Below are positions 23,402-40,767 of a stretch of 64,000 nucleotides of DNA, in pieces. The translations under genes and the position numbers were made by a program. The notes beneath the pieces were generated by a model, which was not told the origin of the DNA, searched no databases, and saw nothing but the letters and a program-made list of their open reading frames with translations. Origin of the DNA: Methanotrichaceae archaeon (GTDB lineage Archaea > Halobacteriota > Methanosarcinia > Methanotrichales > Methanotrichaceae); the NCBI GenBank assembly GCA_963803145.1, contig CAWDLW010000012.1, positions 96,001 through 160,000 of the forward strand, read 5' to 3'. The number at the start of each line of letters is the position of its first letter. Within the stretch, counting starts at the first letter, position 1.

Positions 23402-24052
23402 ATGAAGCGCATTATAATATCTTTCGTTGCATTTGTATTCCTAATGAGCCTAATACCGGCACACGGAGATACGAATATCCTTGAAGAGTACAAAGATCAG
23501 AATTGGCAGCCTTTTATGTCCCATATGTCGGGAGTCTCGGGACCCGGCCTCGTCGTATCAGACTTACCGATTTGCGAGAATCAAACGTTCCTGAAATCTG
23601 TACAGAATGTCTTGAATGAGTATATGTATGAAAAGAAGTACAAAATGGGCGATTTTGATTGCACTAACAGCTCTCAGATCACCTGGTATATACTAAGGCA
23701 GAACGGCTTTGATGCTAGGCTGATATACAGCAACGAGATCGCTATAGGCCGCAAGGATAAAAATGCCAAGGATTTCTCAGGCCATGTCTGGGTTATTGTC
23801 CCTGAGAAAAAATATAACGGCGAGAGTTATGAACAATATGTATACCACGATAGCGGTGGATGGATACCCGTAGAATCACTCGATAACTACTCCAAGCATC
23901 TGGGCCAAGCATACGAGTCAGCACAATCGATCGGATGGTATACACCAAATGATGGCTGGCTCTTCAATAACTCTTCGGAGTACAGTTTGCTGACTGGGGA
24001 CTATAATGAGCTTGGCAATAAGGATTTGCCGATAACAAAGAAGGCAACGTAA
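23402..24052 (+). CDS. Secreted protein with putative transglutaminase/papain-like catalytic residues
   Basis: Signal peptide; FDCTN, GHVWV, WIPVE. Confidence 0.55.
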   Translation: MKRIIISFVAFVFLMSLIPAHGDTNILEEYKDQNWQPFMSHMSGVSGPGLVVSDLPICENQTFLKSVQNVLNEYMYEKKYKMGDFDCTNSSQITWYILRQNGFDARLIYSNEIAIGRKDKNAKDFSGHVWVIVPEKKYNGESYEQYVYHDSGGWIPVESLDNYSKHLGQAYESAQSIGWYTPNDGWLFNNSSEYSLLTGDYNELGNKDLPITKKAT

Positions 24053-24284
24053 GGTCGATGGTCAGGTAATCTATGCCTGCTATTAAAGCAGGTTCCTATT
24101 GACCTTTTCGTCTACGAGATAAAATCTAGGGTCTTTGCCTAAAGAGTTATTTTCGATAATGATTACTTTGAGCTACCTGCAATAAGCTGCTTGATGCTCG
24201 AGGATCTGGGATCTGCCGTCTCGCTCTCAATGCTTTTGTAGCTAATGAAGAGTCCCTTGATACTCTATCTTGATATCCAATACC

Positions 24285-24400
24285 TATACTTTCGCCAGAG
24301 TTTATATACCTATATGCAATCAAGCCATTAGCGAAAGCAACCCTCTAAAACGGGGCATAATAGCATAATATTTATCTCAAAGAGACCCTTAAAGGGGGCT
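24285..24400 (+). promoter_or_regulatory. CRISPR leader with TATA box
   Basis: Non-coding, AT-rich, TTTATATA at ~24301, adjacent to the first perfect repeat. Confidence 0.75.
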
Positions 24401-25805
24401 ATCGCAAAGCTGATCCCGATGAAAAGGGAACTGAAAGTCTGGCTTAGCCCCCTCAATAGTTACTATGATGCGTTTAATCGCAAAGCTGATCCCGATGAAA
24501 AGGGAACTGAAAGGAAAGTATATGAATATCCCGGTAGATCCATGCTTGCTTGTGAGAGATCGCAAAGCTGATCCCGATGAAAAGGGAACTGAAAGTCTAT
24601 CTGTTCAGGATCATAGATCTCTGATGATTGTTATCGCAAAGCTGATCCCGATGAAAAGGGAACTGAAAGCAAAATTAGACATGGTCATACAGAGAATCAG
24701 AGACGCAGATCGCAAAGCTGATCCCGATGAAAAGGGAACTGAAAGCAGTTCCGGAACTGCTTATACATATCGAATCTTTAGAGAATCGCAAAGCTGATCC
24801 CGATGAAAAGGGAACTGAAAGCTATTAGTCGCCCTATCTCAGCGTCCCTGGCCTCTGCAATCGCAAAGCTGATCCCGATGAAAAGGGAACTGAAAGATAT
24901 CGCAGCTATCAGAGTCGTCCTGGAGAGTTAATCATGGATCGCAAAGCTGATCCCGATGAAAAGGGAACTGAAAGCTCCCTATCCGAGAACTTAGCCTGGC
25001 AGGGAGGGCTATATCGCAAAGCTGATCCCGATGAAAAGGGAACTGAAAGTGTTGATGATCTGCCTTTGTATGACGGGCTTAGAGTCTTTGAATCGCAAAG
25101 CTGATCCCGATGAAAAGGGAACTGAAAGTTAAGAACTCCTCCGCATTCGAATGGACTGAAGGAAATATCGCAAAGCTGATCCCGATGAAAAGGGAACTGA
25201 AAGCCCTTTGTGATATCTCTTACCAGGACTTGGAAAAAGCATCGCAAAGCTGATCCCGATGAAAAGGGAACTGAAAGATGGGTCCAGAGACATTTACCAA
25301 CTCCCGCAGGAGTAAGATCGCAAAGCTGATCCCGATGAAAAGGGAACTGAAAGTGCTATCTTTCTCTTCTCTAGCGAAAATATTCAAGCCCATGATCGCA
25401 AAGCTGATCCCGATGAAAAGGGAACTGAAAGAGGAAGCCTCGGCAAGCGGAAAGGCCATAGGAGACGGCATCGCAAAGCTGATCCCGATGAAAAGGGAAC
25501 TGAAAGCATGGCTTGGTATGCTTCCTCAATAGTTTCCATCTTATCGCAAAGCTGATCCCGATGAAAAGGGAACTGAAAGTGTTTGACGTTGCGCCGTTCG
25601 GAGCTGATACTTCGACTATCGCAAAGCTGATCCCGATGAAAAGGGAACTGAAAGATGAACATGTTAGGCAGGGACAATTCGAATAGATGGTATATCGCAA
25701 AGCTGATCCCGATGAAAAGGGAACTGAAAGAGCCGATGAATGTCGCCGTCAGCGCCGTGCCCACGACAATCGCAAGACCGATCCCGTTGAAAAGGGAATT
25801 TATAA
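24401..25805 (+). CRISPR. CRISPR array: 18 perfect 37-bp repeats ATCGCAAAGCTGATCCCGATGAAAAGGGAACTGAAAG plus 1 degenerate terminal repeat; 18 spacers of 36-45 bp
   Basis: Repeats counted from 24401 to 25694; degenerate copy at 25769; 3' GAAAG end and leader give orientation. Confidence 0.98.
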
Positions 25806-25809
25806 TAAT

Positions 25810-26751
25810 TCAACGGCAGTGCTCCCTATATCTACAGTTCCCTGGAGTCTGGCAAATGCCAGGGTCCTTCTCATAGAATATCATGTCCTGTTTCTCATCT
25901 CGTTCCTCAATAAACCATTGGCGAACCTCATCGCTGATTATGAAGAAATCCCTCTCGATGTGTGGCGTTGGATGGTTCTTGGGGAAGCTTAGGTAAACAG
26001 TACAGCCAATATTTATCGGCACCTCGTACAGGCTTTCGTAAACCAGAGCGTATCCTGTGGCCGAAAGCCTATGGAAATCCCTTTTAGGGCCAGTCTTGAG
26101 GTCGCAGATGAGCATGCCACCCATATTTATGGCATCGGCGCTCAAATTGCTGCTCAGGCCGAGGTACTGGCCATCAAGCTTGTGCTCAACTACGAAAGGC
26201 AGAGCATGATTAATCAGAGAGTCCTCGCTAAGGTACCTGTATTTTCCCAGATAAGCGTAAATTGCAGAAACTATCCTGCTTACCTCGAATGTCCAGAGCT
26301 TCTTTAGGTTCACTCCGACCTCTTTAGCGTCATCGCCGGAACCTCTGGCAGAAGCTATTTGCTCTTCGGCTTCAAGAATTGCTTCAGGTAATCGCTCCAT
26401 CAGTATCTGAGCCAGATCAGTACAGACGTCCATGCCCTGTGTATAGATCAGCCTCTTGGCGGTAGGGTAAAGCTCAGCCATGGCTTCATGGTATATCCGA
26501 CCTGCAACCATCTCTTCACTGGCAGGCTGGCTGATCTTCTGCACATGTCTCAGGAATGTATCGCGGCCAGTTTCGCAGTATCTATCTGAGATCTCCCAGA
26601 CGGGCAGCAGGATATCGTGAGGCGGCGAAAGCTCAGTCGAATTCCAGTTCCATCCCCGAAGTTCCTCAGCTATTCCTTTCTCCCGCGCTTTAGGTATGAG
26701 CTTCTTCAGAAGGTATTTGCGCTCTTCCTCGGAAAAGAAATACATGGGCAT
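25810..26751 (-). CDS. csa1: Type I-A Cas4-like protein Csa1
   Basis: EELRGWNW, YCETGRD, LGLSSNLSAD, DLKTG, GYALVYES. Confidence 0.88.
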   Translation of the reverse strand: MPMYFFSEEERKYLLKKLIPKAREKGIAEELRGWNWNSTELSPPHDILLPVWEISDRYCETGRDTFLRHVQKISQPASEEMVAGRIYHEAMAELYPTAKRLIYTQGMDVCTDLAQILMERLPEAILEAEEQIASARGSGDDAKEVGVNLKKLWTFEVSRIVSAIYAYLGKYRYLSEDSLINHALPFVVEHKLDGQYLGLSSNLSADAINMGGMLICDLKTGPKRDFHRLSATGYALVYESLYEVPINIGCTVYLSFPKNHPTPHIERDFFIISDEVRQWFIEERDEKQDMIFYEKDPGICQTPGNCRYREHCR

Positions 26752-26799
26752 CCCTCTAGCGGGAGAACGCCGTTAAAATAGATAAATTGAGATGGTACG

Positions 26800-26888
26800 A
26801 TTTTGCCTGGATAAGGCCCTGTAAACCCAAGTTTCTTCAATCGCCTGATAAGCTCCCGTCTTGATATGGGAAGGAGTTTAGTCTGCAA
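26800..26888 (-). pseudogene. hicA: Truncated hicA
   Basis: ISRRELIRRLKKLGFTGPYPG; similarity ends before the catalytic His. Confidence 0.75.
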
Positions 26889-27132
26889 TAGCTATTGGCT
26901 CCTTTGAGGATTCTATGGTATGGCCACCTATGGGCGGAATCGGATATCCCCATTGAAGCCGAGCTACTATCCATTCCTCGATAACCTCAATGAGATCTCT
27001 CCTGCATTCTTCAAGGGTATCACCAACAGCAATAACACCCTGTAGCCCTGGCACTATAGCCACATAAGAATCATCCTCAAGCGTGTCATATTTAGCACGC
27101 TCCAAGGCTGCTTGGATGTACTCGGAGAACAT
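26878..27132 (-). CDS. hicB: HicB-family antitoxin
   Basis: MFSEYIQAALERAKY...VPGLQGV; paralog of 1093 and 3169. Confidence 0.88.
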   Translation of the reverse strand: MFSEYIQAALERAKYDTLEDDSYVAIVPGLQGVIAVGDTLEECRRDLIEVIEEWIVARLQWGYPIPPIGGHTIESSKEPIAIAD

Positions 27133-27193
27133 ATCGTGATCAATTAAAGCCTTAAAAGGATTTAATACTTGCTGAAGTGAAGAACTATCTCGC

Positions 27194-27793
27194 TCAAACA
27201 AGGGCGCATTCACAATATCGTCTGTATTCACAATCCGTACATCTTCCTGGGTTTCTAGTTCCTAATGGTTCTGTCTCTTCCTGCACAATTCCACCTATTT
27301 CATGGATCATCTTCAGCGTGCGTCTACGTATTTCATCTGTGAAATCGATTCTGGCATTGATCTTGTCGCGACTGTAATGGACGTAGCCCCTCCGAACAAT
27401 GGTCCTGAAACAATCCTCCACCAATAGCGCATAAGCAGCAAGCTGGTACTTATGGTTCAAATGGACATTTCCAGCATTTGATAGGCCAAACTTGTAATCC
27501 ACAGGGACGTATTCTCGTTCAGTTTTTATCAGGTAGTCAAGGATGCCTTTAAGGCCCAGGGCGTTACTTTCAAGAGCAACGCGAAAAAGCTTCTCTGCTT
27601 GGTCGAGTTCAGAATCATAGAATATCGCTCCCTTTCTGCGGCGTTCCTTGGCTGTGATATCATCATGCTTCTCCTTGCCTGTCTCAAGCTTTTGGTCGGG
27701 TGGCTTGGGAACATGGAGCACATGGTCGAAGTAGATTATCTTGGGGCAGTAGAGATATTGCTTAACATCGCTGACTGTGATCATGCCCTTCAA
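27194..27793 (-). CDS. cas4: Cas4
   Basis: YCP, PVDYK, QLAAYA, CTDCEYRRYC. Confidence 0.95.
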   Translation of the reverse strand: MKGMITVSDVKQYLYCPKIIYFDHVLHVPKPPDQKLETGKEKHDDITAKERRRKGAIFYDSELDQAEKLFRVALESNALGLKGILDYLIKTEREYVPVDYKFGLSNAGNVHLNHKYQLAAYALLVEDCFRTIVRRGYVHYSRDKINARIDFTDEIRRRTLKMIHEIGGIVQEETEPLGTRNPGRCTDCEYRRYCECALV

Positions 27794-28068
27794 TACACCA
27801 CCACATCCTCATCCTTAATTTCATAAATCTCGCCGATGCTGTCTTTCATGGAGAAGCATTTGGTGCATAAGGGATAGAACTGGATGTTTCCCTCTTTGTT
27901 ATGCATCATTTTCTCAAGCCTGAGCTTCAATTTCTCTCGCATATTATGATTCATGAAGCCGTAGAAGGCGCTCTTCTGGATTCTTATGCAGCCATAGCCA
28001 AGTAAGGTTTTGGCTATTCTGGTTCTCAGGCCGTTATCGGTTATATCGTAGATGATAATTGTATCCAC
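27790..28068 (-). CDS. cas2: Cas2
   Basis: IIYDITD..LR, RIQKSAF. Confidence 0.95.
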   Translation of the reverse strand: MDTIIIYDITDNGLRTRIAKTLLGYGCIRIQKSAFYGFMNHNMREKLKLRLEKMMHNKEGNIQFYPLCTKCFSMKDSIGEIYEIKDEDVVVY

Positions 28069-28118
28069 AGATTCACCTATCCGCAGATTTACTTATCCGC
28101 AAATTCACCTTTTGGAGA

Positions 28119-29132
28119 TCACCATCTCGGCGTGAATGGCTCGTAAGCTGTTCTCTCACCCCTCAGGAATGTAGCCACTGCCGATGCCTGGGAACGAATG
28201 ATATTTCTGATAAGCTGGCTCTTCTCTCTGTAAGTTATGCGTTCGTCCAGGCGGCCGTAGAATGCAGATGATGCTATTTTCATTCCCTCCTTGGTCATAC
28301 GGCAGTCCTCCTGGAAGTGGCCAGGCTTCATCTCACGGGCCAGTGACACGACCACTCTATCCACCACGATGGGCCTGAACTCCTCCATCATATCATAGAC
28401 CAGCTTCTCCTGGCCGGGTCGATCGGCGTGGAGAAATCCGGCATAAGGATCAAGCCCAGCATAAAGCGTGGCTGCCCAGACCTCCTGCTCCAGGACATAG
28501 TAGCCGAAATTGAGGAGCGAGTTGATTGGGTCCTTTGCAGCCGGATAGTCGCGGCCTGGAAAGGTCCATTCATCCGGTATTAGCTTATGCCAGGTGCGCC
28601 AATAGGTTTCGGCGCCCATGCCCTCCACGCCCATTATCCTCTCGCGGCAGGACTCAAGATCTCCTTTGATCTTGTCAAGCTCAGGGATCATAGACTCAAT
28701 TGATTCTGCAGCAGTCCTGAACTCCTGCCATAGCTCTGTGCGCTCGCCCTTCCACTTCTTGGCAAAGCTTTTCAGGAGCGATGCCTGGTTCCTGAGCTTG
28801 CCATGGATGAACGACTTCGCAAGGTCGGGGCCGCGGTGATCATCATAGGCATGATACTGCTCACGCCTGGTCTTGACTGTGCCGCCAAGGCTGGCGGGAA
28901 TAAGACGGGCTAGGGGTTTACCATGGTAGTTGGCAAAGACGATCTCAACGCCAAGCTCATCTGCCATCTCTATGGCGTCCGAGGAGACGGAGATGCCGCT
29001 GCCGAGGACGAGGATCTGCTCCACCTTGCGGGCAGGGACGAGGGATTCAGGCCCCTCTTTCCGAGAGATGCGGAACTGCTCGCCTGACTTACCGAGGAAG
29101 CTGCCACGGTCGGTGAGGATAATGCGGGACAT
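28119..29132 (-). CDS. cas1: Cas1
   Basis: MGVEG, DPINSLLNFGY, GLDPYAGFLH, DMMEEFR; start placed at MSRII. Confidence 0.95.
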   Translation of the reverse strand: MSRIILTDRGSFLGKSGEQFRISRKEGPESLVPARKVEQILVLGSGISVSSDAIEMADELGVEIVFANYHGKPLARLIPASLGGTVKTRREQYHAYDDHRGPDLAKSFIHGKLRNQASLLKSFAKKWKGERTELWQEFRTAAESIESMIPELDKIKGDLESCRERIMGVEGMGAETYWRTWHKLIPDEWTFPGRDYPAAKDPINSLLNFGYYVLEQEVWAATLYAGLDPYAGFLHADRPGQEKLVYDMMEEFRPIVVDRVVVSLAREMKPGHFQEDCRMTKEGMKIASSAFYGRLDERITYREKSQLIRNIIRSQASAVATFLRGERTAYEPFTPRW

Positions 29133-29273
29133 AAGCGAGGCCTCAGGTCTAAAGTTACTATGCCAGTATTTTTTTATCGATGATATTTCTTTCGTACCCT
29201 TGGAAAAACTGATCTTGACGGTCTGAAGGATCAACTACTAATATAATTTCACGAAATCGATCTATGAGGAGAA

Positions 29274-29759
29274 ATGAACGACCGATTTGCTCGGGAATCT
29301 TTACAAAAGATCGAAACGAGTTTCTTTCAGACCCCCACATTTCAGGCACTGACTATCGGTATCCCTTTTTGCATCTTCAAGCTCCTTTTTGGAGCTTTAA
29401 GCATCAGGGCAGGCACAGATCCACAATCTCCTTTGGTTATTTTCGGCTTATTGATCATCCTCTGGGCATCTGCTGATCTAATAATGAACCTGGTTGTAGT
29501 AGCCTTCAATACTGCAGGCCGCAAATCGCCAATCGAGTTCTGCACAATCGCCCAAGTAGGACGCCTTTTCGGGAAATCAAAGCTGTTCCTGGCCATTGAT
29601 ACACTGATCGCCTTTTGCATCATCTGCTTCGTCCTCTGGTCAGGATGGATAAAGCTTCTCAATATCAATGAATCGTACATCTGGTATGCGGCCACCACAC
29701 TTAATCTCATAAGCATCTCCATTGTAAACATATGGTTGGAACTGAGGAGACGACCCTAG
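29274..29759 (+). CDS. Hypothetical membrane protein (~4 TM)
   Basis: Hydrophobic segments; GAGGAG RBS. Confidence 0.7.
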   Translation: MNDRFARESLQKIETSFFQTPTFQALTIGIPFCIFKLLFGALSIRAGTDPQSPLVIFGLLIILWASADLIMNLVVVAFNTAGRKSPIEFCTIAQVGRLFGKSKLFLAIDTLIAFCIICFVLWSGWIKLLNINESYIWYAATTLNLISISIVNIWLELRRRP

Positions 29760-29793
29760 ATCATACATCATTCAAGAAAGAGATAATTGGATA

Positions 29794-30009
29794 CTTCCCC
29801 CACACGGGTGAGGCATACCCTGATAGAGGTTTCCAAGAACCTTGAGTGTGACTTCGATTTAGCGCGGCAAATAAGAACAATATTCGCATTTGGAGCTGCT
29901 ATTATAATTCAAGGGCTTTATACTTCCTTTTGGGACTGCTACTAGCGGTTATACTAGCGCACTCAATCGCCGTGCGGGCTACCCCTAACCCCTCTTCGGG
30001 GGAAGGTTT
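29794..30009. repeat. Dispersed non-coding repeat/MITE-like element; inverted partner at 40376-40497
   Basis: 29884-30009 is the reverse-complement homolog of 40376-40497; CTTCCCCC...GGGGGAAG termini. Confidence 0.7.
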
Positions 30010-30191
30010 CCTGAGATATGGGCGACAAGGTTGATTGGGACATGATGAATGATTCCCTCCAGCTATGTTCCTTTACCCCAGCTAAAATCGTTCGTCTTTG
30101 TGCGTTCTTCGTGAACTTCGTGTTTTGGTGGTTGGTAGTTCGTCGTTTGTTTAATATCTGGACCAATTACTTTTCGCCACTAAGGCAGCCA

Positions 30192-30326
30192 TTATGTTTC
30201 ATTCCTGTATTGCGCGTCCTCAATCTCCTTCAGCTCTGCCATCTCGCTTCTTCTTATGTTATCTAAGATCGTAGTGATCTCATCGATGCTCTCGATTCTA
30301 CGTACGACTTCCTCTTTTGTGGTCAT
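30192..30326 (-). CDS. Small acidic helical protein (44 aa), not in ORF track
   Basis: MTTKEEVVRRIESIDEITTILDNIRRSEMAELKEIEDAQYRNET; GGAGG RBS. Confidence 0.55.
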   Translation of the reverse strand: MTTKEEVVRRIESIDEITTILDNIRRSEMAELKEIEDAQYRNET

Positions 30327-30585
30327 TTCAAGCCTCCCAATAATGGCGGTCGAGCCAACTGATCGATCTTGATCCCGACTTGATGCTCACCAGCGCACAG
30401 GTGTGTCTGCCTGGCGGGATTGTGGGATGTTGGGGAATTGCTGCTATCATTTTAATTCGCCTTAATACCGATGCGGGTCGATAGTATATATATTTTTGGT
30501 TATATTGGTAATATAGGTTATGATGGTGCTATGTATTTATATAATAAGCGAAATTGTTTATACTATGCTTACGACATGTGTTGAT

Positions 30586-30774
30586 ATGAAGCTGGGAGAA
30601 ATCGAGAACGTCGCGGAAAGGGAGACACTCATTGAACCGCTTTATAAGAGAATCGATAAGCATGGACGCATTTATATAGATGTGGGCCTCGCGAACCAAG
30701 AAGCACTTATCTTGGTAGTGAAGCCAATCCCGAAAGACAAAATAGACTTCATCCGCGTGGGAAGGAGATCTTAA
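30586..30774 (+). CDS. Small AbrB-fold/DUF2080-like DNA-binding protein
   Basis: KRIDKHGRIYI...GLANQEALILV. Confidence 0.55.
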   Translation: MKLGEIENVAERETLIEPLYKRIDKHGRIYIDVGLANQEALILVVKPIPKDKIDFIRVGRRS

Positions 30775-31068
30775 ATCTCCTTGGATAATAGTATTAATAA
30801 AAATAGTGTCTATAGTAATCTACCTAATTTATGTTGATGGAATAAGAGCTATAACATTCCTTGGCAGATCCTCTATTGTTTAGAGATAATTGGTCAAATC
30901 AACCGCCATGGCTGGAGATCTCTTTTGCCATTTCCGTTTGCCACTCAGTTTGCAGTGAAGCTATTGATCTCTTCCTCTATCTCATCTCTGTCGCTGATAT
31001 TAATAAAGCAATTCGAATTAGGGTCCGAAAAAGATTATAAATATCAAGATTAAGAGTGGTTATGTACA

Positions 31069-31169
31069 GGCTTAGGTGAATATCCCGCGCGAAGGGAACT
31101 GAAAGGTATTGTAATACAGCTTGGCAATGAGCATCGCAGAAGACATCCCGATGAAAAGGGAACTTGAAT
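31069..31169 (+). CRISPR. Solitary mini-array (degenerate repeat - 27-nt spacer - degenerate repeat), CreA/CreR-like RNA
   Basis: R1 ends AAGGGAACTGAAAG; R2 ATCGCAGAAGACATCCCGATGAAAAGGGAACTTGAAT; own TATA (ATTATAAATA ~31034) and T-rich terminator (~31186). Confidence 0.85.
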
Positions 31170-31269
31170 ATTAAAGTAGCAAAAACTTTTTATTTTTAAT
31201 CATTAATTACACGGGTTAAAATGGTTGAGTAGAAAGCCTTAAATTCTAACCCTGTATTATAAGTTATCT

Positions 31270-31419
31270 ATGCAATATACAGCGAAGAAGGATACAGGCC
31301 CGATAATGGGGTGGGATGATTGGGTTAACCCAAGACCCAACTGGATTTACCAAGCGAATATCATTCCCGTAAATGATGTAATCTTCTACGATTATGCCAT
31401 ACATCGAAATGGGAGGTAA
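31270..31419 (+). CDS. Unannotated 49-aa, probably leaderless ORF; candidate CRISPR-repressed toxin
   Basis: MQYTAKKDTGPIMGWDDWVNPRPNWIYQANIIPVNDVIFYDYAIHRNGR; BRE/TATA-like AGAAAGCCTTAAAT ~25 nt upstream. Confidence 0.45.
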   Translation: MQYTAKKDTGPIMGWDDWVNPRPNWIYQANIIPVNDVIFYDYAIHRNGR

Positions 31420-31510
31420 TGGCCTAGAATCATCAATATCTATACTTAGATATTTCTTTCATCTTATGGGAAAGATTTAACATATAATAGGGTTACTGGA
31501 GAGCTAAAGT

Positions 31511-33920
31511 ATGGATGTGGGATCAGGGGTTAAGGACATTAGTGTAAATGAATATAAAAATTTTTTCCAAAAAGCTACAAAGTATGAACCATATCCGTAT
31601 CAAGAAAGTGTTTTTTCTAAAATTTCTAAAGGGGAATCTGTAGTTCTCCGTGCCCCAACAGGGTCAGGGAAAACCCTTGCAGTTTTGATGCCTTTCCTAT
31701 ATTATAGCAGCCTAAACGAGCGATTAATCGATAGAGTTATCTATGTGCTACCTATGAGAGCCCTGGCATTCGATCTCTGTAACTCAACAATAAAGACCGC
31801 CGAAAGCGCAGGGTTCAAGGTAATAAAAAATCCTGAAAAAAGGAGTAATCAAGAGAAAGAGATCTGCATCACAATACAAACAGGAGAACGTCAGAACGAC
31901 CACTTTTTTGAGGGCGATATAATCTTCACAACAATAGATCAGCTATTATCAAGTTATCTAACTATACCTGTATCTCTGCCTAACAGACTTGGCAATATCA
32001 ACATCGGTGCAATTATAGGTTCTCTGATTGTATTCGATGAAGTTCACTTAATGGAGTTTCAGCGGTCATTTCTGACCGCTACAGAAATGATGAATAGATT
32101 CAAGGGCCTAGCTCAGTTTTTCGTAATGACCGCTACTCTGACTGAGCCAACACAAAGATGGCTGACAAAGCAGATTGGCGCTGAATCAGTAACTTGCAGC
32201 ATAGATGAGCTTAAAAATGTCCGTGGTTATAAGGAGCGGAGCAGGATTTATTCATTTGAAAAAGAGCCTCTTTCATCAGATGCAGTAATTAAGAATCACA
32301 AGCAAAAGACATTGGTTTTATGCAACAGAGTAGACCGATCCCAAAAGATTTATCCGAACTGAAGGAGGCGCTTAAAGATAGAGATATAAAAGTAGCGCTT
32401 CTCCATAGCCGCTTTTTCAAGACAGATAGAAGTGTGATAGAGAAGAATCTGCAAGGATGGTTCGGCAAGGAATCAAAGAATCTAAATGCGATACTGGTAT
32501 CAACCCAGGTAGTTGAAGCAGGCATTGATATATCCTGCGATGTCATGCATACCGAATTGGCTCCCGCAAATTCTCTTATCCAACGTGCAGGACGATGTGC
32601 GAGATATTCAGGAACTGGTAAAGTATTCATTTATGAGCTTGAGGACCCCGCTAACTTCCTCCCTTATGCAAAGAATGAGGTCGATGCCACTCGAAAAGAA
32701 GTAAATGATTTTAAAGAAGAGAGCTTGATCCAGATTTAGAAAAGGATCTAGCTGAAAGGGTTCATGCCCCTCTTGAAGATTCAAGGCTAATCGATTCCAT
32801 ACAGAATCGCCGTGGAGAAGTAAACGAGGCGATGGATTACGGCCATTCCTCCAATATTCAAAAGCTAATAAGAGAGGTAGACAGCGTCAATATTCTACTT
32901 ACGCCAAATCCAGACGACGAAAACTTAGAAAATTCATGGCCAGAGATGCTATCTGTTCCTCGATCAACACTTTATAGGCTGAAAAAAGAGGGCAATGGTG
33001 ATTGGATCTTCAAAATCCCTATATTTAGCGATGATGAAGATTTTAAAGGCTCAAGATGGCAAGAGGTAGAATCAGTTAATGATATCTCTTGGTTGGCGGC
33101 ATTGAACCCGAGATTTGCGAAGTATTCGCAAGAGATTGGGTTGGTATTCGGTGAAGAAGGACAGAGATGTGTATCTTCTACCGAAAAAACCCCTCATGAA
33201 AGCTATAATTATTCATGCGAATCATATCTGGAACATACCAATCTTGTCATCGATGAAGCAAGATCATTGATCCCACTTTACGATAATGGAATAAAAAATC
33301 TAGCTGCTAAATTTCTGTCAGACAGCGGTTCCATTGAAAGAATGCTTCTCCTGGCCTGTGCTCTCCATGATGCTGGAAAATTAAGCACGCAATGGCAAAG
33401 CGCTATGCACACGTGGCAGAGCATCTCAGATCCGAATGCTAAACAATTTGTCAATGGATTACCCTTGGCACATACAACATACGATTCAAGAAGAGATTGG
33501 AGGAGAATGCAGGAACTAAAGATAAATAAAGGTCCACATGCCGCGGAAGGTGCCTATGCCGTTCTGCCAATGATAATCAAAGGATGCCAAACTCAGTTTG
33601 ATGAAAATATAGATTTAGATAATATAGCGATTGCCATTATGGCAGCTATCGCAAGGCACCACGGCCCTAGGACTTCCAACCTTCAACCATCCAAGCTAAT
33701 TCCCGAAGCGAAAAAGGTGCTATCTGATGCAATTGGGTCATTAGGGATGGACCTAGGAGAACTGGATATAAGCGATACGCCCGATCAAGATGAAATCGAT
33801 ACATTCAAGGATTATCTAAAAATAGATCAAATAGAGAAAGGGCTATTTTTATATTGGCTATTTGTAAGGGTCCTTCGGTTGGCTGATCAGAGAGCAACAT
33901 CTAAGATAGGGAGCCCATAA
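31511..33920 (+). CDS. cas3: Cas3 helicase with C-terminal HD nuclease (two apparent frameshifts)
   Basis: APTGSGKT, DEVH, MTAT, STQVVEAGIDI, QRAGRCAR, LHDAGK, ARHHG, LRLAD across three frames. Confidence 0.88.
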
Positions 33921-35629
33921 TGAGTAAAAAACTGTGTTTTGTGGTCCCAAAAGAGACCAATACATATGCAGATGTCCTCATGACCGTGGGTACATCAGAC
34001 CTTTTAAATGAGATTTATGGAGATGAGGCTCGGATCTCGATCAAAGATAAAGGCGATAGGTTTAACATCGATGTATCTTCCCAGGAAGGGTTAGAGCTGT
34101 TGGATAGATATACACGGCTCGATATTGGCTATCGTTTTGTAAAGCAGAAGGATAATGAGAAGATACCTCTCGGCATAGAGAACTACTACGATTATCCTGA
34201 AGAGAAGAAGAAAGATGACGCCTATTCTAAATTTGAGAAAACTACCGGGAAAAAGAAAACTAAAATTGCCAATAATATAGTTGATGCAGGATTGGATAAG
34301 CCTCCTGCTCCTGATCCCGCTCTTAAGCTTCATAAAATCCTAGCATCTATGCGCAAAGGCTGGAAGAGCGATAAGGAGTTCTACGAATATTTTATCAATA
34401 ATCGCGAAACGGTTACAAAACTAGCCATAAATAACCTAAAGTATTTGGCCGGTTCATGCTCAGAAAAATTAGCGAAGAAAAACTTAATAAGATCGTATCA
34501 GGATCTCAGGTTCTCCTGCCAATTGGCGGAAAGGGCATCAATAGGCCAAAACCGGATTCTACGGGGAAATCTGGCCTGCCTTCAGATTTCATTGATTGGT
34601 TTTCAGAATGGATGAAGTATCGTGGCATGTTTAAGTTCTTGCTTCCCTATAGAAGTGGAGATGATTTCAAATTTTACGTCATAATTCCCAAGGAAATATC
34701 ATTTAATGCCCTAATGGCAATACACAAAGATCTCTTCAATAAGAATTTATGGGGCGGGATAAAGCTAGATATTCAGGCAACTTTGGATCTAGCAAGAATC
34801 TTAATTATGCACTCAGAGGAATATGATAAAGAAAAAGGCTCTTTCAAGATGCTAAAGAGACGCCCCAACCAGATAATCGAAGGGTTATCCCAAGCCTATT
34901 TTAAGAGCCTAGGAACCGCCGCTGCTTTAATGAATTATTCTTTCTTAGGTCTACCTGGCTGGTTCACAATCGAGAATAACGAAACTGCACACGAGTTTAT
35001 AGAAATCATAAATGAGCACGAAAAATGCATTAGCGCTCTTCAGGACGATATATCTAGCGATATCCCTCTTCTTCAAGAATATAGGAGCCCCCTTTCCTCA
35101 GGGGATTATAGGTATTTCCTGGAATTTTTGTCTCTTTATGGAACCTATGTCATACAACGTAGAGAGAGAAATAAGTGGGCAATGCAATTCACAATCCAAA
35201 ACTTGAGGAGGATATTCATGGTGAAAAAAGATTACTCTGAGAGAATATCAAACGAGGGTTTTTTGATTTAGCGACTGCAATAAGGAAAGCTACCGTAAGC
35301 GCTCAATATCGCAAAGCTCAAGGAAATCGAGAGTGGGATATCAAATATGGTTTAGCTCAGGATTGGAAGCGAGTAGTGGAACAACCTGATAAGTTGGTCG
35401 TAGCTATCTCAGATTTCGTTCAGCAGTACAATGCCGAGAACGCAAGACATGAAGAGCAATCGAAAGAAAGGCGAAGCAATGTAACTACTAAAGACCTCAG
35501 TGAGGTTCTGGATTTAATAAAAAATTACGACTCGTACCTGGTAGGATGTTGCTTTTAGCCTATGGATATGCCAGAGAGGTTAGAGAAAAAGATGAACCAG
35601 CTGAGATAAAAGAAGGTGGAACCCAATGA
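33920..35629 (+). CDS. cas8: Cas8-like large subunit (three apparent frameshifts)
   Basis: Position between cas3 and cas7; overlapping stop/start codons; GKGINRPKPD motif. Confidence 0.72.
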
Positions 35630-36605
35630 AAATAAATTCTTTAAGTATATCTGGGCTTTTGACCCTCAATATGCATGCCCTTAATAATGAGGGCTCCGAG
35701 GGAAACTATCTCCAGACGAGGATGGTTGAAATAGTGGATGTAGATGGAGCAGCACATTCAGTAAATGCAATCTCTGGAGATATGTTTAAGCATATCCAAG
35801 CTGATCATTTGTATTCTATTGCTGGAGAAGAAGGTGTCTCTCTGCAATGGGTGCTCAGGCTTTAATCCTAATCGTATTAATATCGATAATAGATTATTAG
35901 ATGAGTATAAACAACGCAAGGAAGTAACTAACTCCGAGATCATCGATTGGGTTATTCGTAATTGTATTGGTGATGATGTCGAAGGAACGATGATAACTCA
36001 AAATATAGGACTTACTGCTGCAGATAAACCACAATCCCGCTCAATAGGCAGAAAATCTGTAGTTGAGTTTGGCTGGGCAGTTGGGGAGCCAGAAAAGACA
36101 AAAACCCGAATCTTATTTCCACGTCAAGTTCGATCAAACTGAAAGAGCTGGCGGTAGAGGCGATGATACTGGCGCAAATATAGGTCAGAACATTTTTCAT
36201 AGGCCCGCATCAAGCGGCAGGTATGCTATCGTTCTTAATACAGATCTATGTCGTATAGGATTCAATGATATTACACGTGAGTACTCAATAAATCTAGAAG
36301 AACGAAAGAAAAGGGCGATAGTCGTTTTAAAAAGTATATTAGCAACATTTCTGAAGCCAGAAGGGGCTCATAGAAACACACAGAATCCACACATAGTGAA
36401 TTTCCAGGGCTGCATTACCGCAAGTTCTACAATGCTTCCAGCTCCAACAGTAAGTGCTCTTAATGATAAGTATTTGGTAGAAATAGGAAATATTTGCAAT
36501 ACTTTAAATGAACTTAGCCCAAATTCAATCACAAAACGGGAGTTCAATAGCCTGCAAGAATTTGTATCTACGATTAAGGAAATAATAGATTCATTAGAGA
36601 TATGA
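35626..36605 (+). CDS. cas7: Cas7 (DevR/Csa2 family; two apparent frameshifts)
   Basis: MHALNNEG, NAISGDMFKH, RKSVVEFGW, IFHRPASSGRY. Confidence 0.88.
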
Positions 36606-37360
36606 GTATGACTGAGTTTGCTCAAGAATGGCTGGTCCTAGAATACTTGCCCACTAGCTTATTCTCTCTCAAAATTTCAACAGCTACGAATAAGGGTGGC
36701 AAAACGCTTTTTGTCCCCACGCCTTATTCGATCAAGCTGGCTTTCGTAGATGCGGCGTTCCGTATTGGTGGAGAAAAATTAGCTAAGGAGATCTTCAGCT
36801 CTATCAAAGGAAGCGATATTCGTTTATCTCCACCAGATAGATTATATGTTCTCAATACTTTTATAAAAATCCTTGACGAAAGCAGAGATAAGACTTCAGA
36901 TCCTTACCAATCAACAATTGCTTATAGAGAATTTTGTTATTTCCAAGGCATGCTTGAGATAGCTTTCTCTTTGGAAAATTGCCCTAATGAAGTTCAAGAA
37001 AAAATAAGGGAAATAGCTGCTCACGTAAACTATTTCGGAAAAAGAGGTAGCTTTTTCCAGTATATTAAAAGTAGAACGATTTCAGAATTGCCGCTTGGTT
37101 TTACAGTAAAAGCAACTGATCTGAAAGGAAATATTGGTGGATATGAAGTTATTCAGCCTCTGGATGACATTGGAGAATTAAATTCAAAGGATTTATTCGA
37201 CCGCATTAATACGTTTTCTGATAAAAAGATTGAAAGGGGTAAACATAGAGTATTTGTGCTTACATATTTACCTTATAAAATGGAGAAAAGCTCAACCAGC
37301 TATACAGCGTATGTAAATCCATATCGGTGCGAAACATGCCCCTCCCCCGCCCCAACCTAA
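36602..37360 (+). CDS. cas5: Cas5
   Basis: SLFSLK...KTLFVPTPYSIK, YREF, YFGKRGSF. Confidence 0.85.
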   Translation: MSMTEFAQEWLVLEYLPTSLFSLKISTATNKGGKTLFVPTPYSIKLAFVDAAFRIGGEKLAKEIFSSIKGSDIRLSPPDRLYVLNTFIKILDESRDKTSDPYQSTIAYREFCYFQGMLEIAFSLENCPNEVQEKIREIAAHVNYFGKRGSFFQYIKSRTISELPLGFTVKATDLKGNIGGYEVIQPLDDIGELNSKDLFDRINTFSDKKIERGKHRVFVLTYLPYKMEKSSTSYTAYVNPYRCETCPSPAPT

Positions 37361-37379
37361 ACTCCTTTTTGCTAACTCT

Positions 37380-37532
37380 CGCCAAGCATTACACCATCAC
37401 CGCAAAGGAAGCCTTATGACACAGCTCATCTCCACAGCCCTCTACAGCTCAGTAGCCCGCAGCCTAACAGGCCCATCCTCCGACATCGACCTCTTCATCG
37501 TGCTTCAGGAGACACCCTCGGGCATACTGGCC
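37380..37532 (+). pseudogene. Partial duplicate of the MNT gene at 38267
   Basis: ALYSSVARS..GPSSDIDLF; DNA nearly identical to 38376-38473. Confidence 0.75.
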
Positions 37533-37624
37533 TACTGTCCGTTTGCTCCTGACCAAATGAATGGATACCTGCATTCCAAAAAGTTTATCACGTCTGCTTC
37601 CCCACTAATGGGACAGTGAATTAA

Positions 37625-37885
37625 ATGCCAGTCACAAAGGTCGATGAAAAGGGCAGAGTAGTCCTGCCGGGTGAGCTCAGGCGCAAGCTGAGGATTAACA
37701 CCGGCGACGAGTTCATCGTAGAGGAGCTGGGGCCGGATTCACTCGTCCTGAAGAAGGTAAACCTGCGGGCTCTGATGCAGGATATCATAGAAAAGGCCAA
37801 GAACGTCGATATGGATAAGCTAGAGGCTGAGATTGAGGAAGAGGCTAATCGGCTTGCCAGACGAAAATACAAGATTCTTGATTGA
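37625..37885 (+). CDS. AbrB/MazE-family antitoxin
   Basis: KVDEKGRVVLPGELRRKL.I..GD. Confidence 0.9.
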   Translation: MPVTKVDEKGRVVLPGELRRKLRINTGDEFIVEELGPDSLVLKKVNLRALMQDIIEKAKNVDMDKLEAEIEEEANRLARRKYKILD

Positions 37886-37973
37886 TACCAATCTGTTCAT
37901 GGCCGCCGCAAAGAGTGGTTGGACTAAGAGCACAGATCTGCTCTCGCTATCCCCATGCGGTTGTGTACAATAA
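37854..37973 (+). pseudogene. Truncated PIN/VapC toxin
   Basis: RFLIDTNLFMAA PIN N-terminal motif overlapping the antitoxin; early stop. Confidence 0.7.
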
Positions 37974-38084
37974 GCTCGCCGGGCATCCAGGCAGTCTGCC
38001 ATCGGATGCCTGCAAAGAATAGGGCAGATTCGCAGGAATTCTTCCAAAGAACATTTAAGTTAGCTAGGTTGATATTATAAATCA

Positions 38085-38237
38085 TTGCCCACACTCACAG
38101 CAGTTATCCACAGAGAAGAAGACATGTACATTGCTGAGTGCTCGGAGGTAGGTACGGCAAGTCAAGGTAAGACCATCGAGGAGGCAGTGAAAAATCTCAA
38201 GGAAGCTACAGAGCTATATCTGGAGGAGTTTCCCTGA
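38085..38237 (+). CDS. Short orphan HicB-family protein (50 aa), not in ORF track
   Basis: TAVIHREEDMYIAECSEVGTASQGKTIEEAVKNLKEATELYLEE. Confidence 0.8.
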   Translation: MPTLTAVIHREEDMYIAECSEVGTASQGKTIEEAVKNLKEATELYLEEFP

Positions 38238-38266
38238 AGGATAGGGAGCGTTAATCACCATAAAGG

Positions 38267-38779
38267 ATGTGTAGTGTGTCACTATCAAAGGCTGAGCTAA
38301 ACGCCATTTTTCGAACGCTTGCAGAGCGTTATGCAACAGCAGCCAAAATGGTCCTCGGAGATCAACTAGTTTCAATAGCCCTCTACGGCTCAGTAGCCCG
38401 CAGCCAGGCAGGCCCATCCTCCGACATCGACCTCTTCGTCGTGCTTCAGGATGCTCCCTCAGGCATGCTGGCCAGACGTCGTCTTCTCCAGCCTGTGCGT
38501 GACTCCCTCACAGCGGAGCTGGAAGGTCTATGGGAACAAGGCATCTACACTGATTTCATCGAGGTGATCCGCTCTAGGACAGAAGTTCTGCAGTTCCATC
38601 CCCTCTATCTGGATATGTCGCAGGATGCCATCCTGCTCTATGATCGTGACCAATTTTTGCATACTCTGCTTGAAAAGGTCAGAGAGCGCCTGCAAAGGGC
38701 GGGCGCTGAGCGCTATGCTATGGGAAAACATTGGTACTGGGATATGAAACAGGCCTTTGTGTCTGGGGAGGTTGTGTGA
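38267..38779 (+). CDS. Minimal nucleotidyltransferase (MNT) antitoxin
   Basis: LYGSVAR...SDIDL. Confidence 0.9.
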   Translation: MCSVSLSKAELNAIFRTLAERYATAAKMVLGDQLVSIALYGSVARSQAGPSSDIDLFVVLQDAPSGMLARRRLLQPVRDSLTAELEGLWEQGIYTDFIEVIRSRTEVLQFHPLYLDMSQDAILLYDRDQFLHTLLEKVRERLQRAGAERYAMGKHWYWDMKQAFVSGEVV

Positions 38780-38781
38780 TC

Positions 38782-39213
38782 ATGAATCCCAATGCTCCTG
38801 CCAGGCGCATGGTATCAAGAGCTCTAATCATCATTGAGGAGGCAGAGTACCTACAGAGAAAACTTGCCTGGAACATGGTTGTGCGGCGCTCTCAGGAGGT
38901 TGTAGAGCTGGCGTTAAAAGCTGCTCTCCTCTGGGCGCAAATAGAAGTGCCTCGTATCCATGATGTTGGACCCATACTAAAGCAATACTCTGACCGCTAT
39001 CCAGAACCATTTCGAGGGCGTATATCCCATCTAGCATCCATCTCTCGAATGCTGAGAGCAGAGCGTGAGATCAGCTTTTACGGGGATGAACAGAGCGGTA
39101 TACCTCCCGAGAGCCTCTATACTCCAGAAGATGCAAAGGAAGCCCTATCAAAGGCGCACGAAGTGCTGAGTGCCTGCCATGAGCTTATAGGTAAGGATGC
39201 CCTGGATGACTGA
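38782..39213 (+). CDS. HEPN-domain protein
   Basis: QEVVELALKA, PRIHD, REISFY; adjacent to MNT. Confidence 0.88.
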   Translation: MNPNAPARRMVSRALIIIEEAEYLQRKLAWNMVVRRSQEVVELALKAALLWAQIEVPRIHDVGPILKQYSDRYPEPFRGRISHLASISRMLRAEREISFYGDEQSGIPPESLYTPEDAKEALSKAHEVLSACHELIGKDALDD

Positions 39214-39229
39214 TCTTACTTTCATATGT

Positions 39230-40204
39230 CTAAATCGATATCTCATAACTCCCATTTCCAAACGTAGCCATCTTGCCTATATGGATCAGCTTACCTAACT
39301 CAAGCAAGGCCATGATCTCTCTTGAGAACTCCCCGGAATAGACGATCTCCCCTCTGAAAAATGGTGCCAGGGGTTTCTTCTCAGATCCCTGATCGTGGAA
39401 TCTGCGTTCCATCCATATCTCTTCTGTCTTGGCGCTTGCAATATTCACTCCCCGGCATAGGCTCAGGATAGATAGAACCTCCTCATGGTCATAGAGCATT
39501 CCAGGGCCGTAAAACTCAGCCAGGGCATTTGCCCTGGAGATCAGCCTTCCCATGAGGCCTCTGAAGCTTGGAGCAGCAGTGAACCTGCCGTTCTCCTTGA
39601 TCTGTGTAGGAGTAATGAAATGCATTGATAATTTTCCGGAGTGCTCCTGTGATGCCTCAACCATTTCCCTATAGCTGAGGCAAATTGATCTGTTATAAAC
39701 GGTCTCTCCCTGGAAGATATTTGATCTGGCTCCATACCCTATGGAGTCCACCGCCTCTAAACAGAACTTCCCCTTGCCCTCTCTGAAGCCCAGACTCATT
39801 CCCTTTTCCCCCAGGTTTCTCAGAGCCAAAAGGAAGTAAGGCAGATAAGACATAGCCTTTCCAACGAGGGTGAACCCGAGGACCAGCCCGTCTCCTGGGC
39901 TGTATCTTCCGGGCTTCGGCGGCTCGAAGGCAAAGGGTCTCGGAATCTCCTGGTTCCTCAGCACCTTCGCCCCATCAAATGGACGAGAGTTATAAAAGAA
40001 ATCGTAAGCACATGATGCCCTTTGAAGGCATCCTGAGCAATCATTCCCATGGCCTCCATAGCTCAGGCAGACCATCTCTTTCAATCTGGCCCCAAAGCCG
40101 CTTCTAAGTACATTGCCTGACCAGGGAGGAAGATCTGCAGCTGTGCTGAATCTGATACTGGCCTCATATCTGGCCAGCTCTAGGTTTTTCAGTTCCCTTT
40201 TCAT
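39230..40204 (-). CDS. cas6: Cas6 endoribonuclease
   Basis: GNVLRSGFG, Cys cluster, FITP, C-terminal HIGKMATFGNG. Confidence 0.92.
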   Translation of the reverse strand: MKRELKNLELARYEASIRFSTAADLPPWSGNVLRSGFGARLKEMVCLSYGGHGNDCSGCLQRASCAYDFFYNSRPFDGAKVLRNQEIPRPFAFEPPKPGRYSPGDGLVLGFTLVGKAMSYLPYFLLALRNLGEKGMSLGFREGKGKFCLEAVDSIGYGARSNIFQGETVYNRSICLSYREMVEASQEHSGKLSMHFITPTQIKENGRFTAAPSFRGLMGRLISRANALAEFYGPGMLYDHEEVLSILSLCRGVNIASAKTEEIWMERRFHDQGSEKKPLAPFFRGEIVYSGEFSREIMALLELGKLIHIGKMATFGNGSYEISI

Positions 40205-40210
40205 CGGGAT
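40187..40210 (-). promoter_or_regulatory. 24-nt CRISPR repeat copy overlapping the cas6 start codon
   Basis: Minus strand ATCCCGATGAAAAGGGAACTGAAA is identical to repeat nt 13-36. Confidence 0.9.
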
Positions 40211-40375
40211 TCCCCATTATTTATTCAAAGTAAAGTCGAAGGCGCCAATGACACATCAGACAGCCATTGGATATTAGAATATAAGCTTTCGACATCACCT
40301 CTATGACTATATTAGCGAGTATTATCTATCAATAGTTAATCTTATCCCCTTCAACCTTATAGCATGAATTTTCCA

Positions 40376-40497
40376 AAACCTTCCCCCGAAGAGGGGTTAG
40401 GGGCAGCCCGCGCGGCGATTGAGCGCGCTAAGATAGCCGTTAGTTTTAGCCCCTGAAGAAAGTGTAGTCTCTTGAATTAGTTGCAGCCTCAAACGCA
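40376..40497. repeat. Inverted partner of the 29884-30009 repeat
   Basis: aaaccttcccccgaagaggggttagggg.agcccgc.cggcgattgag.gcgcta shared. Confidence 0.8.
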
Positions 40498-40767
40498 AAA
40501 TCAATTATGCCTTCCTACGAAAAATCCATAGAGCGTATCGGTTTTTCATACTTAGAGCACGACGCATAGAATCACGAGGATTTTGTGGTTGATCGTTACT
40601 GAACTCTCATCACCAAGGCACGAAAAATTTACTTTGAGGATTGAAGTTATTAGGCGATTAGTCGAAAGAAGAACTGGAGTAGGATTGCATAACTCGTTCA
40701 AGGCTCGCTTGACTGAGGATAATTGCCTGCAAACGTTTAAGCCTGAGCGCAGCGGAAATATATCAGG

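Follow-up and report, generated by a model that had tools for sequence, protein, structure and literature searches.

The 64,000-nucleotide (nt) stretch analysed in this study (the window; positions 96,001 to 160,000 of contig CAWDLW010000012.1 of a Methanotrichaceae archaeon) carries a type I-A CRISPR-Cas locus, in which a solitary two-repeat mini-array, psiR1-psiS-psiR2, is located outside the main array, between cas1 and cas3. The guide of the mini-array, psiS, partially matches a site 148 nt downstream that adjoins CCT and covers the start codon of an open reading frame (ORF) of 49 amino acids (aa), ORF49, and this match is non-random. CreA-guided repression has been shown for CreTA (types I-B and I-F; PMC8501985) and for CrePA (type I-F; 10.1101/2024.01.05.574328). 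Judged from its sequence, the locus may be a CreA/CrePA-like self-regulating module in which the mini-array guide would direct Cascade to the start of ORF49; on balance we favour this reading, with moderate confidence, and the module is possibly a relic in this genome. A first-pass annotation of the same letters had proposed such a module, and the coordinates and letters of all the mini-array elements that it listed were correct on re-reading the sequence. The elements of the mini-array are as follows.

31026-31043, plus strand: BRE (transcription factor B recognition element)/TATA-like element, CGAAAAAG ATTATAAATA, some 30 nt before psiR1; predicted to be the mini-array promoter
31069-31105, plus strand: psiR1, degenerate repeat
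31106-31132, plus strand: psiS, 27-nt spacer-like guide, GTATTGTAATACAGCTTGGCAATGAGC
31133-31169, plus strand: psiR2, degenerate repeat identical to the array repeat at 29 of 37 positions
31187-31197, plus strand: two T5 runs; oligo-T terminator-like sequence, predicted end of the mini-array transcript

Comparison with the 37-nt repeat of the main array (ATCGCAAAGCTGATCCCGATGAAAAGGGAACTGAAAG) revealed that the last 14 nt of psiR1 were identical to it, including the 8-nt 5' handle ACTGAAAG (8/8), while the first 29 nt matched at only 11 positions. In psiR2, 24 of the first 29 nt were conserved, repeat positions 13-32 (the hairpin region) were untouched, and the last 8 nt matched at five positions. 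psiR1 and psiR2 were identical to each other at 19 of 37 positions, and a 4-bp UCCC/GGGA stem was preserved in both, each of which folds. Retention of the 5' handle in psiR1 and of the 3' handle and hairpin in psiR2 corresponds to the divergent pattern of degeneration reported for creA genes (PMC8501985; CreR preprint 10.1101/2023.03.10.532045). As in creA genes, the repeat-spacer-repeat unit lies inside the cas locus but outside the array, and no likeness to a CRISPR leader was detected: the 200 nt upstream of psiR1 aligned to the 200-nt array leader with a local score of 19, which 662 of 1000 shuffles equalled or exceeded (shuffle mean, 20.1). The divergent degeneration, the retained stems and the lack of leader likeness bear out the CreA-type anatomy. 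The element at 31026-31043 is similar to the conserved cas3 promoter motif described below, and the mini-array is single-copy in the genome.

The site matched by psiS and its flank are as follows.

31251-31253, plus strand: CCT directly 5' of the target; resembles a protospacer-adjacent motif (PAM) of the CCN class of characterised I-A systems
31254-31280 (31254-31290 with the extension described below), plus strand: target site GTATTATAAGTTATCTATGCAATATAC, spanning the predicted transcription start site and the ORF49 ATG

Alignment of psiS with 31254-31280 confirmed 17 identities in 27 positions (1-5, 7-9, 13, 15, 16, 19-23 and 27), mismatches at all of positions 6, 12, 18 and 24 (p = 0.012 given 10 mismatches) and the adjacent CCT. 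CCT works as a PAM in the characterised type I-A system of Sulfolobus islandicus, where CCN is the functional class (PMC4770200), in agreement with the first-pass statement on I-A PAMs, and by this likeness CCT is a candidate PAM here. The ungapped match runs on into the first 10 nt of psiR2 (positions 28, 30, 31 and 33-37; 8/10), giving 25 identities in 37 positions before falling to background, and none of the 12 positions of the handle/PAM flank preceding guide position 1 matches; the likeness begins exactly at position 1. Three of the five departures of psiR2 from the array repeat at repeat positions 7-12 shift it towards the target sequence. As 37 nt is a normal spacer length in this locus, psiR2 may contribute its 5' part as additional guide sequence along the Cas7 backbone.

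When the whole genome was searched with the 37-mer comprising psiS and the first 10 nt of psiR2, the best non-self match was this site (25/37, or 23/31). psiS alone had 350 non-self sites with at least 17/27 identities among 8.26 million positions. When every sixth base was ignored, a scheme picked post hoc but in line with established Cascade behaviour, 19 non-self sites scored at least 17/23; four of these had a perfect seed (positions 1-5, 7 and 8), and a CCN was found only at 31254. The site is therefore the only non-self position in the genome combining the seed, a score of at least 17/23 and CCN, which answers the call of the first-pass annotation for a genome-wide check of PAM-adjacent matches. 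A local null model, covering 1444 positions within 400 nt on either side, gave a consistent result. Among 50,000 shuffled spacers, 5447 found a seed match, 313 a seed match with CC, 14 a seed match with at least 17/23, and none all three; among 20,000 real AT-rich 27-mers compared with their own neighbourhoods, the corresponding numbers were 3173, 140, 66 and 0. These counts support a non-random, partial, PAM-proximal pairing. Short pairing of this kind is in keeping with published CreA guides, for which pairing at no more than positions 1-5 and 7-11 has been described (PMC8501985).

The setting of the target was examined with reference to three further elements.

31231-31244, plus strand: BRE/TATA-like element AGAAAGCCTTAAAT; putative ORF49 promoter, by motif likeness to cas3 promoters
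31270-31419, plus strand: ORF49, 49 aa, ATG start, no family hit
31467-31481, plus strand: TGGGAAAGATTTAAC, promoter-like motif shared with the cas3 upstream regions of two orthologous loci

Transcription from the element at 31231-31244 would start near 31268-31270, producing a leaderless ORF49 mRNA. The target reaches from just after this element to +11 of ORF49, or +21 with the extension, so that 31254-31290 spans both the start site predicted from the TATA-like box and the ATG, as had been noted at first pass. Bound Cascade would thus block initiation at ORF49 and read-through towards cas3. The conserved cas3 motif, TGGGAAA[AG][GA]TTTAAC, is located about 215 nt downstream of the target and downstream of ORF49, and is likely to be the native cas3 promoter. 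As this promoter lies 3' of ORF49, the target is not the cas3 promoter. The alternative suggestion of the first-pass annotation, that the guide controls transcription into the cas3 operon, is weakened accordingly and could hold only for read-through into cas3.

The proposed mechanism is as follows. The mini-array would be transcribed from its own BRE/TATA element, with transcription ending at the oligo-T sequence, and Cas6 would cut within psiR1 and psiR2 to release an RNA resembling a CRISPR RNA, in which the normal 8-nt 5' handle is followed by a 27-nt guide and by a 3' part that derives from the repeat. Within the I-A Cascade, it would base-pair with the template strand over 31254-31290, beside the putative CCT PAM. 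The pairing, perfect over the seed (positions 1-5 and 7-9) and patchy beyond it, may suffice for binding but not for full R-loop formation and cleavage. As in CreTA and CrePA, ORF49 would then be expressed only upon loss or inhibition of Cascade or of the guide. The locus has the sequence-level features of a creA gene, with the putative PAM assigned by likeness to Sulfolobus and the putative promoter by likeness of motif.

ORF49 is single-copy in the genome and generated no match in Pfam, NCBIfam or PADLOC, and no usable match in a protein atlas search. Among 1.84 billion representatives, one convincing relative was found (P0002; E = 1e-6), which is also 49 aa long and has the motif GPIxGWDDW...RPNWIYQANI in common with ORF49. 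This homologue of the same length supports ORF49 as a real protein gene. Two other HMMER matches, P0001 and P0003, were to long repeat proteins and were dismissed as spurious; a word-index search found no relatives, and an alignment search found P0002 only. The locus encoding P0002 was not found in genomes, metagenomes, viral contigs, plasmids, phages, the 392 genomes of the class or the 401 genomes sampled from the phylum, the 4+1 loci returned being chance matches of 12-31 residues in bacteria. Two further candidate relatives of ORF49 were rejected, one (in genome G272) as noise on inspection and the other (in G368) as a match to residues 5-21 only, inside an 835-aa frame. ORF49 was not assigned to CreP, as the family searches gave no KilAC domain, nor to CreT-like RNA toxins, as it carries no tandem rare codons and has a homologue at the protein level. 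The only tandem identical codons among its 49 codons are AAG AAG and GAT GAT. Any toxicity of ORF49 is presumed from the likeness of the module to CreTA and CrePA.

The CRISPR-Cas locus surrounding the module comprises the following features.

24401-25805, plus strand: CRISPR array of 18 identical 37-nt repeats and a degenerate terminal repeat (25769-25805), with 18 spacers of 36-45 nt
25810-26751, minus strand: csa1, adaptation gene, frame open (Csa1 profile, 5.3e-65)
26878-27231, minus strand: UPF0150/HicB-like ORF among the adaptation genes, frame open
27194-27793, minus strand: cas4, frame open
27790-28068, minus strand: cas2, frame open
28122-29132, minus strand: cas1, frame open
31511-33920, plus strand: cas3, helicase with C-terminal HD, broken
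33920-35620, plus strand: cas8a, broken
35626-36605, plus strand: cas7 (Csa2/DevR family), broken
36602-37360, plus strand: cas5a, intact
39230-40204, minus strand: cas6, intact

cas1 and cas3 are separated by a 2.4-kb gap, after which cas3-cas8-cas7-cas5 follow on the plus strand. As intact orthologues of the interference genes in genome G338 generated PADLOC hits on Cas8a (1.1e-66), Cas5a (9.4e-86), Cas7a (5.4e-29) and Cas3a1 (4.7e-78), and Csa1 is encoded in the window, the system was assigned to type I-A, as the first-pass annotation had it. Type I-A systems usually have a small subunit, Csa5, and a Cas3 split into Cas3' and Cas3''. The orthologous operon leaves no room for csa5, its cas3, cas8, cas7 and cas5 abutting one another, and its Cas3 is a single protein of 800-824 aa with the helicase first and HD last; the system was therefore regarded as a variant of I-A.

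Relative to intact orthologues, seven frame-breaking indels (six deletions and one insertion) were present in cas3, cas8 and cas7 of the window. cas3 carried two 1-nt deletions (at about 32353 and 32708) in comparison with an intact 824-aa orthologue, cas8a three 1-nt deletions (about 34470, 35266 and 35546), and cas7 a 2-nt deletion (about 35835) and a 1-nt insertion (about 36105). Three of the seven indels change GAAT to GAT. The frames of cas1, cas2, cas4, csa1, cas5 and cas6 were open. As a control, 45 orthologous genes of at least 300 aa (19,815 aa) were compared with those of genome G336 and contained no frameshift, two multi-frame cases being paralogues. The assembly is thus not generally error-prone, and the seven indels represent either real decay or a local assembly fault. 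A second CRISPR-Cas system, of type I-B and apparently intact, was found on contig C18 of this genome (about 132-144 kb and 155-156.4 kb; locus L057), with cas1b, cas4b, cas8b, cas7b, cas5b, cas3b and cas6b and arrays of at least 34 repeats. Its repeat is related to but distinct from the I-A repeat, its handle, ATTGAAAC, differing from ACTGAAAG at two positions.

An insertion of about 2.27 kb (29207-31448) between cas1 and cas3 contains both the mini-array and ORF49 and is bounded by an imperfect duplication.

29182-29206, plus strand: left copy of an imperfect duplication of about 25-30 bp of the ancestral cas1-cas3 intergenic sequence
31449-31473, plus strand: right copy of the duplication

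The insertion also contains a 161-aa membrane-like ORF (29274-29759), small ORFs without family hits, and one copy of a dispersed repeat present in about 90 copies. The dispersed repeat is about 130-180 nt long and ends in GCGCNCTCAATCGCCGNGCGGGCTNCCCCTAACCCCTCTTCGGGGGAAGGTTT, with copies at 29880-30060 and 40376-40499 (minus strand). It looks like either a miniature inverted-repeat transposable element or a structured RNA; the scanned copies had no Rfam match, and an Rfam scan of 24000-41000 gave one sub-threshold chance match only. The closest cas loci were those of G338 and G336, whose Cas3 is 82% and 75% identical, respectively, to the N-terminal Cas3 fragment of the window. In G336 (locus L029, 14321-18791), cas7 encodes only 253 aa and is about 3 kb from cas5, and the interval contains ORFs of 495, 202 and 159 aa that have no counterpart in G338; the short cas7 and the long interval suggest that this I-A locus is disrupted as well. 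A DNA search with 31000-31520 in 61 relatives generated repeat matches only, and no isolated repeats were found at the more distant Cas3 loci of G007, G036 and G037 or in the arrays of G021.

Several observations weigh against a CreA-like module. In G338 and G336, cas1 and cas3 point away from each other across an interval of about 120 nt, which contains neither mini-array, ORF49 nor insertion. No orthologous module was found in the 392 genomes of the class, and the module is thus a singleton; a pattern search of these genomes for units with a short spacer matched two other genomes, and the match inspected, in G346, lies inside a regular array. ORF49 likewise occurs in none of the other genomes among the 392 of the class and the 401 sampled from the phylum, and its product is not hydrophobic, matches no family and could not be folded confidently with AlphaFold (predicted local distance difference test score, 51.5). 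As for the match itself, contiguous PAM-proximal pairing ends at position 9, shorter than in published cases, and over 37 nt the sixth-position pattern is weaker (4/6 mismatched, p = 0.07). A gapped alignment of 31106-31160 with 31254-31310, whose score was reached by seven of 2000 shuffles, extends into the psiR2 hairpin, so part of the likeness may reflect common descent rather than selection for pairing. CCT is only a candidate PAM for this particular system: a set of 53 spacers, of which 18 came from the window, 23 from G338 and 12 from G336, generated chance matches of 14-22 nt only in the corresponding genomes, the whole array had no match in phage and plasmid collections, and spacers 1 and 2 of the 18 in the window, searched in viral contigs as exact 24-nt patterns, had no matches, nor had psiS as a 24-nt pattern. 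Finally, if the seven indels are real, no I-A Cascade could be made from this locus and the circuit would be a relic; the cell would also have survived the loss of Cascade, so ORF49 would not be a lethal toxin that is still expressed. With cas3, cas8 and cas7 frameshifted, the circuit has probably ceased to operate in this genome, and the seven indels in these genes, against none in the 45 controls, count against the working addiction circuit that the first-pass annotation had envisaged.

An alternative explanation, which we consider unlikely but the best of the rivals, is that the mini-array is a non-functional relic, being a decayed array fragment or a local duplication on the 2.27-kb insertion whose likeness to 31254-31310 is due to common descent. 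It would fit the single occurrence of the mini-array and its lack of conservation, the imperfect duplication and the dispersed repeat that accompany the insertion, the extension of the gapped likeness to the psiR2 hairpin, the frameshifts in the interference genes, and the stray repeat copy at the start of cas6 (see below). However, random decay does not predict that psiR1 and psiR2 would conserve complementary parts, nor that the likeness would begin exactly at guide position 1 with none of the 12 preceding positions matching. The intact seed, the CCT and the mismatches at 6, 12, 18 and 24 are equally unexpected under this explanation, as are a TATA-like box and an oligo-T end belonging to the mini-array itself.

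A CreR-type autoregulator, throttling transcription that enters cas3-cas8-cas7-cas5 with ORF49 as an incidental or short upstream ORF, appears rather improbable. The mini-array shares the orientation of the interference operon and immediately precedes it, no strong oligo-T stretch separates ORF49 from cas3, CreR elements as a rule precede effector genes and in many cases have no toxin (10.1101/2023.03.10.532045), and the I-A Cascade of Sulfolobus is known to take part in repressing its own operon (PMC5389559). Nevertheless, Cascade bound at 31254 would not cover the conserved cas3 motif at 31467-31481, about 215 nt further on, and the target belongs to a BRE/TATA-like element distinct from that motif and includes the ATG of an ORF with a protein homologue; a target at the promoter of the effector operon with no coupled cargo gene, as in CreR, was not observed. 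It is very improbable that the mini-array is a decoy or counter-defence RNA soaking up Cas6 or Cascade, or redirecting Cascade, for an inserted mobile element: the inserted segment does carry the dispersed repeat and small ORFs resembling AbrB and RHH proteins (from their translations, with no family hit), and viral and prophage mini-arrays hijacking Cas effectors have been described (PMC10120712, 10.1101/2024.10.29.618823), but the best target of the guide lies in cis, 148 nt away, and neither at the promoter of a cas gene nor in a further defence gene, the insertion showed no gene for an integrase or for other mobility functions, and no match was found in phage, plasmid or viral collections.

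The CreA-like module would most closely resemble CrePA of the type I-F system of Acinetobacter baylyi ADP1, which consists of the CreA RNA and the CreP protein toxin (10.1101/2024.01.05.574328). Both are located in a cas intergenic region, with psiR1-psiS-psiR2 followed in the same orientation by a PAM-flanked partial match in the promoter of a small protein gene, and in both the two repeats are degenerate while the hairpins are retained; a steric block of transcription initiation is proposed for both. In contrast, CreP is a 103-aa KilAC-domain protein, while ORF49 is 49 aa long with no family hit; the ADP1 guide pairs over 19 nt at all positions but the 12th, while pairing here is contiguous only to position 9; and ADP1 is a bacterium with a type I-F system, while the module described here belongs to a type I-A system of an archaeon. 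Toxicity and repression were demonstrated in ADP1 and are putative in the present module. CreTA of the haloarchaeal I-B systems (H. hispanica, H. hubeiense; PMC8501985) is likewise archaeal and leaderless, with two divergently degenerate repeats retaining the 5' handle in psiR1 and the 3' handle in psiR2, and with short PAM-proximal pairing in a BRE/TATA promoter. Unlike ORF49, CreT is a small RNA with a mini-ORF whose tandem rare codons sequester a rare tRNA, and its PAM is TTC in subtype I-B, as opposed to the putative PAM CCT in I-A here.

CreR and other regulatory mini-arrays (types I and V-A; 10.1101/2023.03.10.532045, PMC10120712) similarly comprise a degenerate mini-array upstream of effector genes and a guide partly complementary to a nearby PAM-flanked site, but their targets adjoin the promoter of cas8, cas10d or cas6, whereas the target here is at a separate promoter-like element and ORF upstream of the predicted cas3 promoter. 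In the type I-A system of Sulfolobus islandicus, Cascade acts with Csa3b as a repressor of transcription inside the locus that encodes it, and diversion of Cascade elsewhere lifts this repression (PMC5389559); a comparable relief is proposed here, although in that system Cascade is recruited by Csa3b on palindromes, not by a dedicated, partly matching guide. The survey in PMC10120712 puts the share of archaeal I-A loci with mini-arrays at about 10% (its Table 1 gives 6% of 139 I-A loci); it describes targets for I-E, I-F1, I-D and I-B and, supplements aside, none for I-A. The subtypes covered in the CreR preprint (10.1101/2023.03.10.532045) are I-B, I-C, I-D, I-E, I-F, I-U and V-A, with Figures S6 and S7 as places where I-A cases may be listed. 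The term I-A is absent from the available text of PMC8501985, of a 2025 review (PMC12737573) and of the crlRNA preprint (10.1101/2024.10.29.618823), and a literature search pairing creTA with I-A returned PMC10120712 as the sole relevant paper.

Other parts of the locus also contain repeat-derived and small-ORF sequences. The start of the cas6 ORF lies inside a copy of the repeat hairpin and handle (ATCCCGATGAAAAGGGAACTGAAA, repeat positions 13-36), within a repeat copy at 40186-40222 on the minus strand (27/37), and the cas6 ATG, at 40204, is the ATG of the hairpin loop; the hairpin folds as that of the array repeat does. In G338 and G036, cas6 directly follows an array and has its orientation, so the repeat at the cas6 start of the window resembles the remnant of a last repeat that became fused to cas6. 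The start codon of the cas6 mRNA might be a site where Cas6 itself binds or cuts. The G338 locus (L028) has a degenerate repeat at 11308-11344 (minus strand), downstream of cas6, so that cas6 of G338 is flanked by a decayed repeat on one side and by the array's last good repeat on the other. The interval between cas5 and cas6 in the window (37416-39213) contains small toxin-antitoxin-like genes: a short nucleotidyltransferase-like ORF (37416-37619), of which 111 nt recur with 86% identity at 38363-38473, a MazE/AbrB-type antitoxin ORF (37625-37885) and two more ORFs (38267-38779 and 38731-39213).

More speculatively, and at low probability, the insertion may be a portable Cascade-dependent cassette placed between cas1 and cas3, with ORF49 as the founder of a new family of CRISPR-repressed archaeal protein effectors, the first 10 nt of psiR2 as an extra guide restoring a length of 37 nt, and the seven frameshifts as the record of a lineage that escaped or outlived addiction.

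Cascade-guided self-regulation (CreTA, CreR and CrePA) has been demonstrated for types I-B, I-E, I-F and V-A, while type I-A is so far represented, supplements aside, by survey-level counts of mini-arrays. The locus described here would provide a concrete I-A example with a defined guide and a defined target in an archaeon, presumably of a methanogen-related class to judge from the make-up of the locus. It also points to the limit of such guards, as the genes that would be guarded appear to have decayed anyway. The pair of psiS and its target would offer a test case for how the I-A Cascade reads partial pairing, and if the CreA/CrePA-like reading is true, ORF49 would be a second protein cargo, unrelated to the only known one, CreP.

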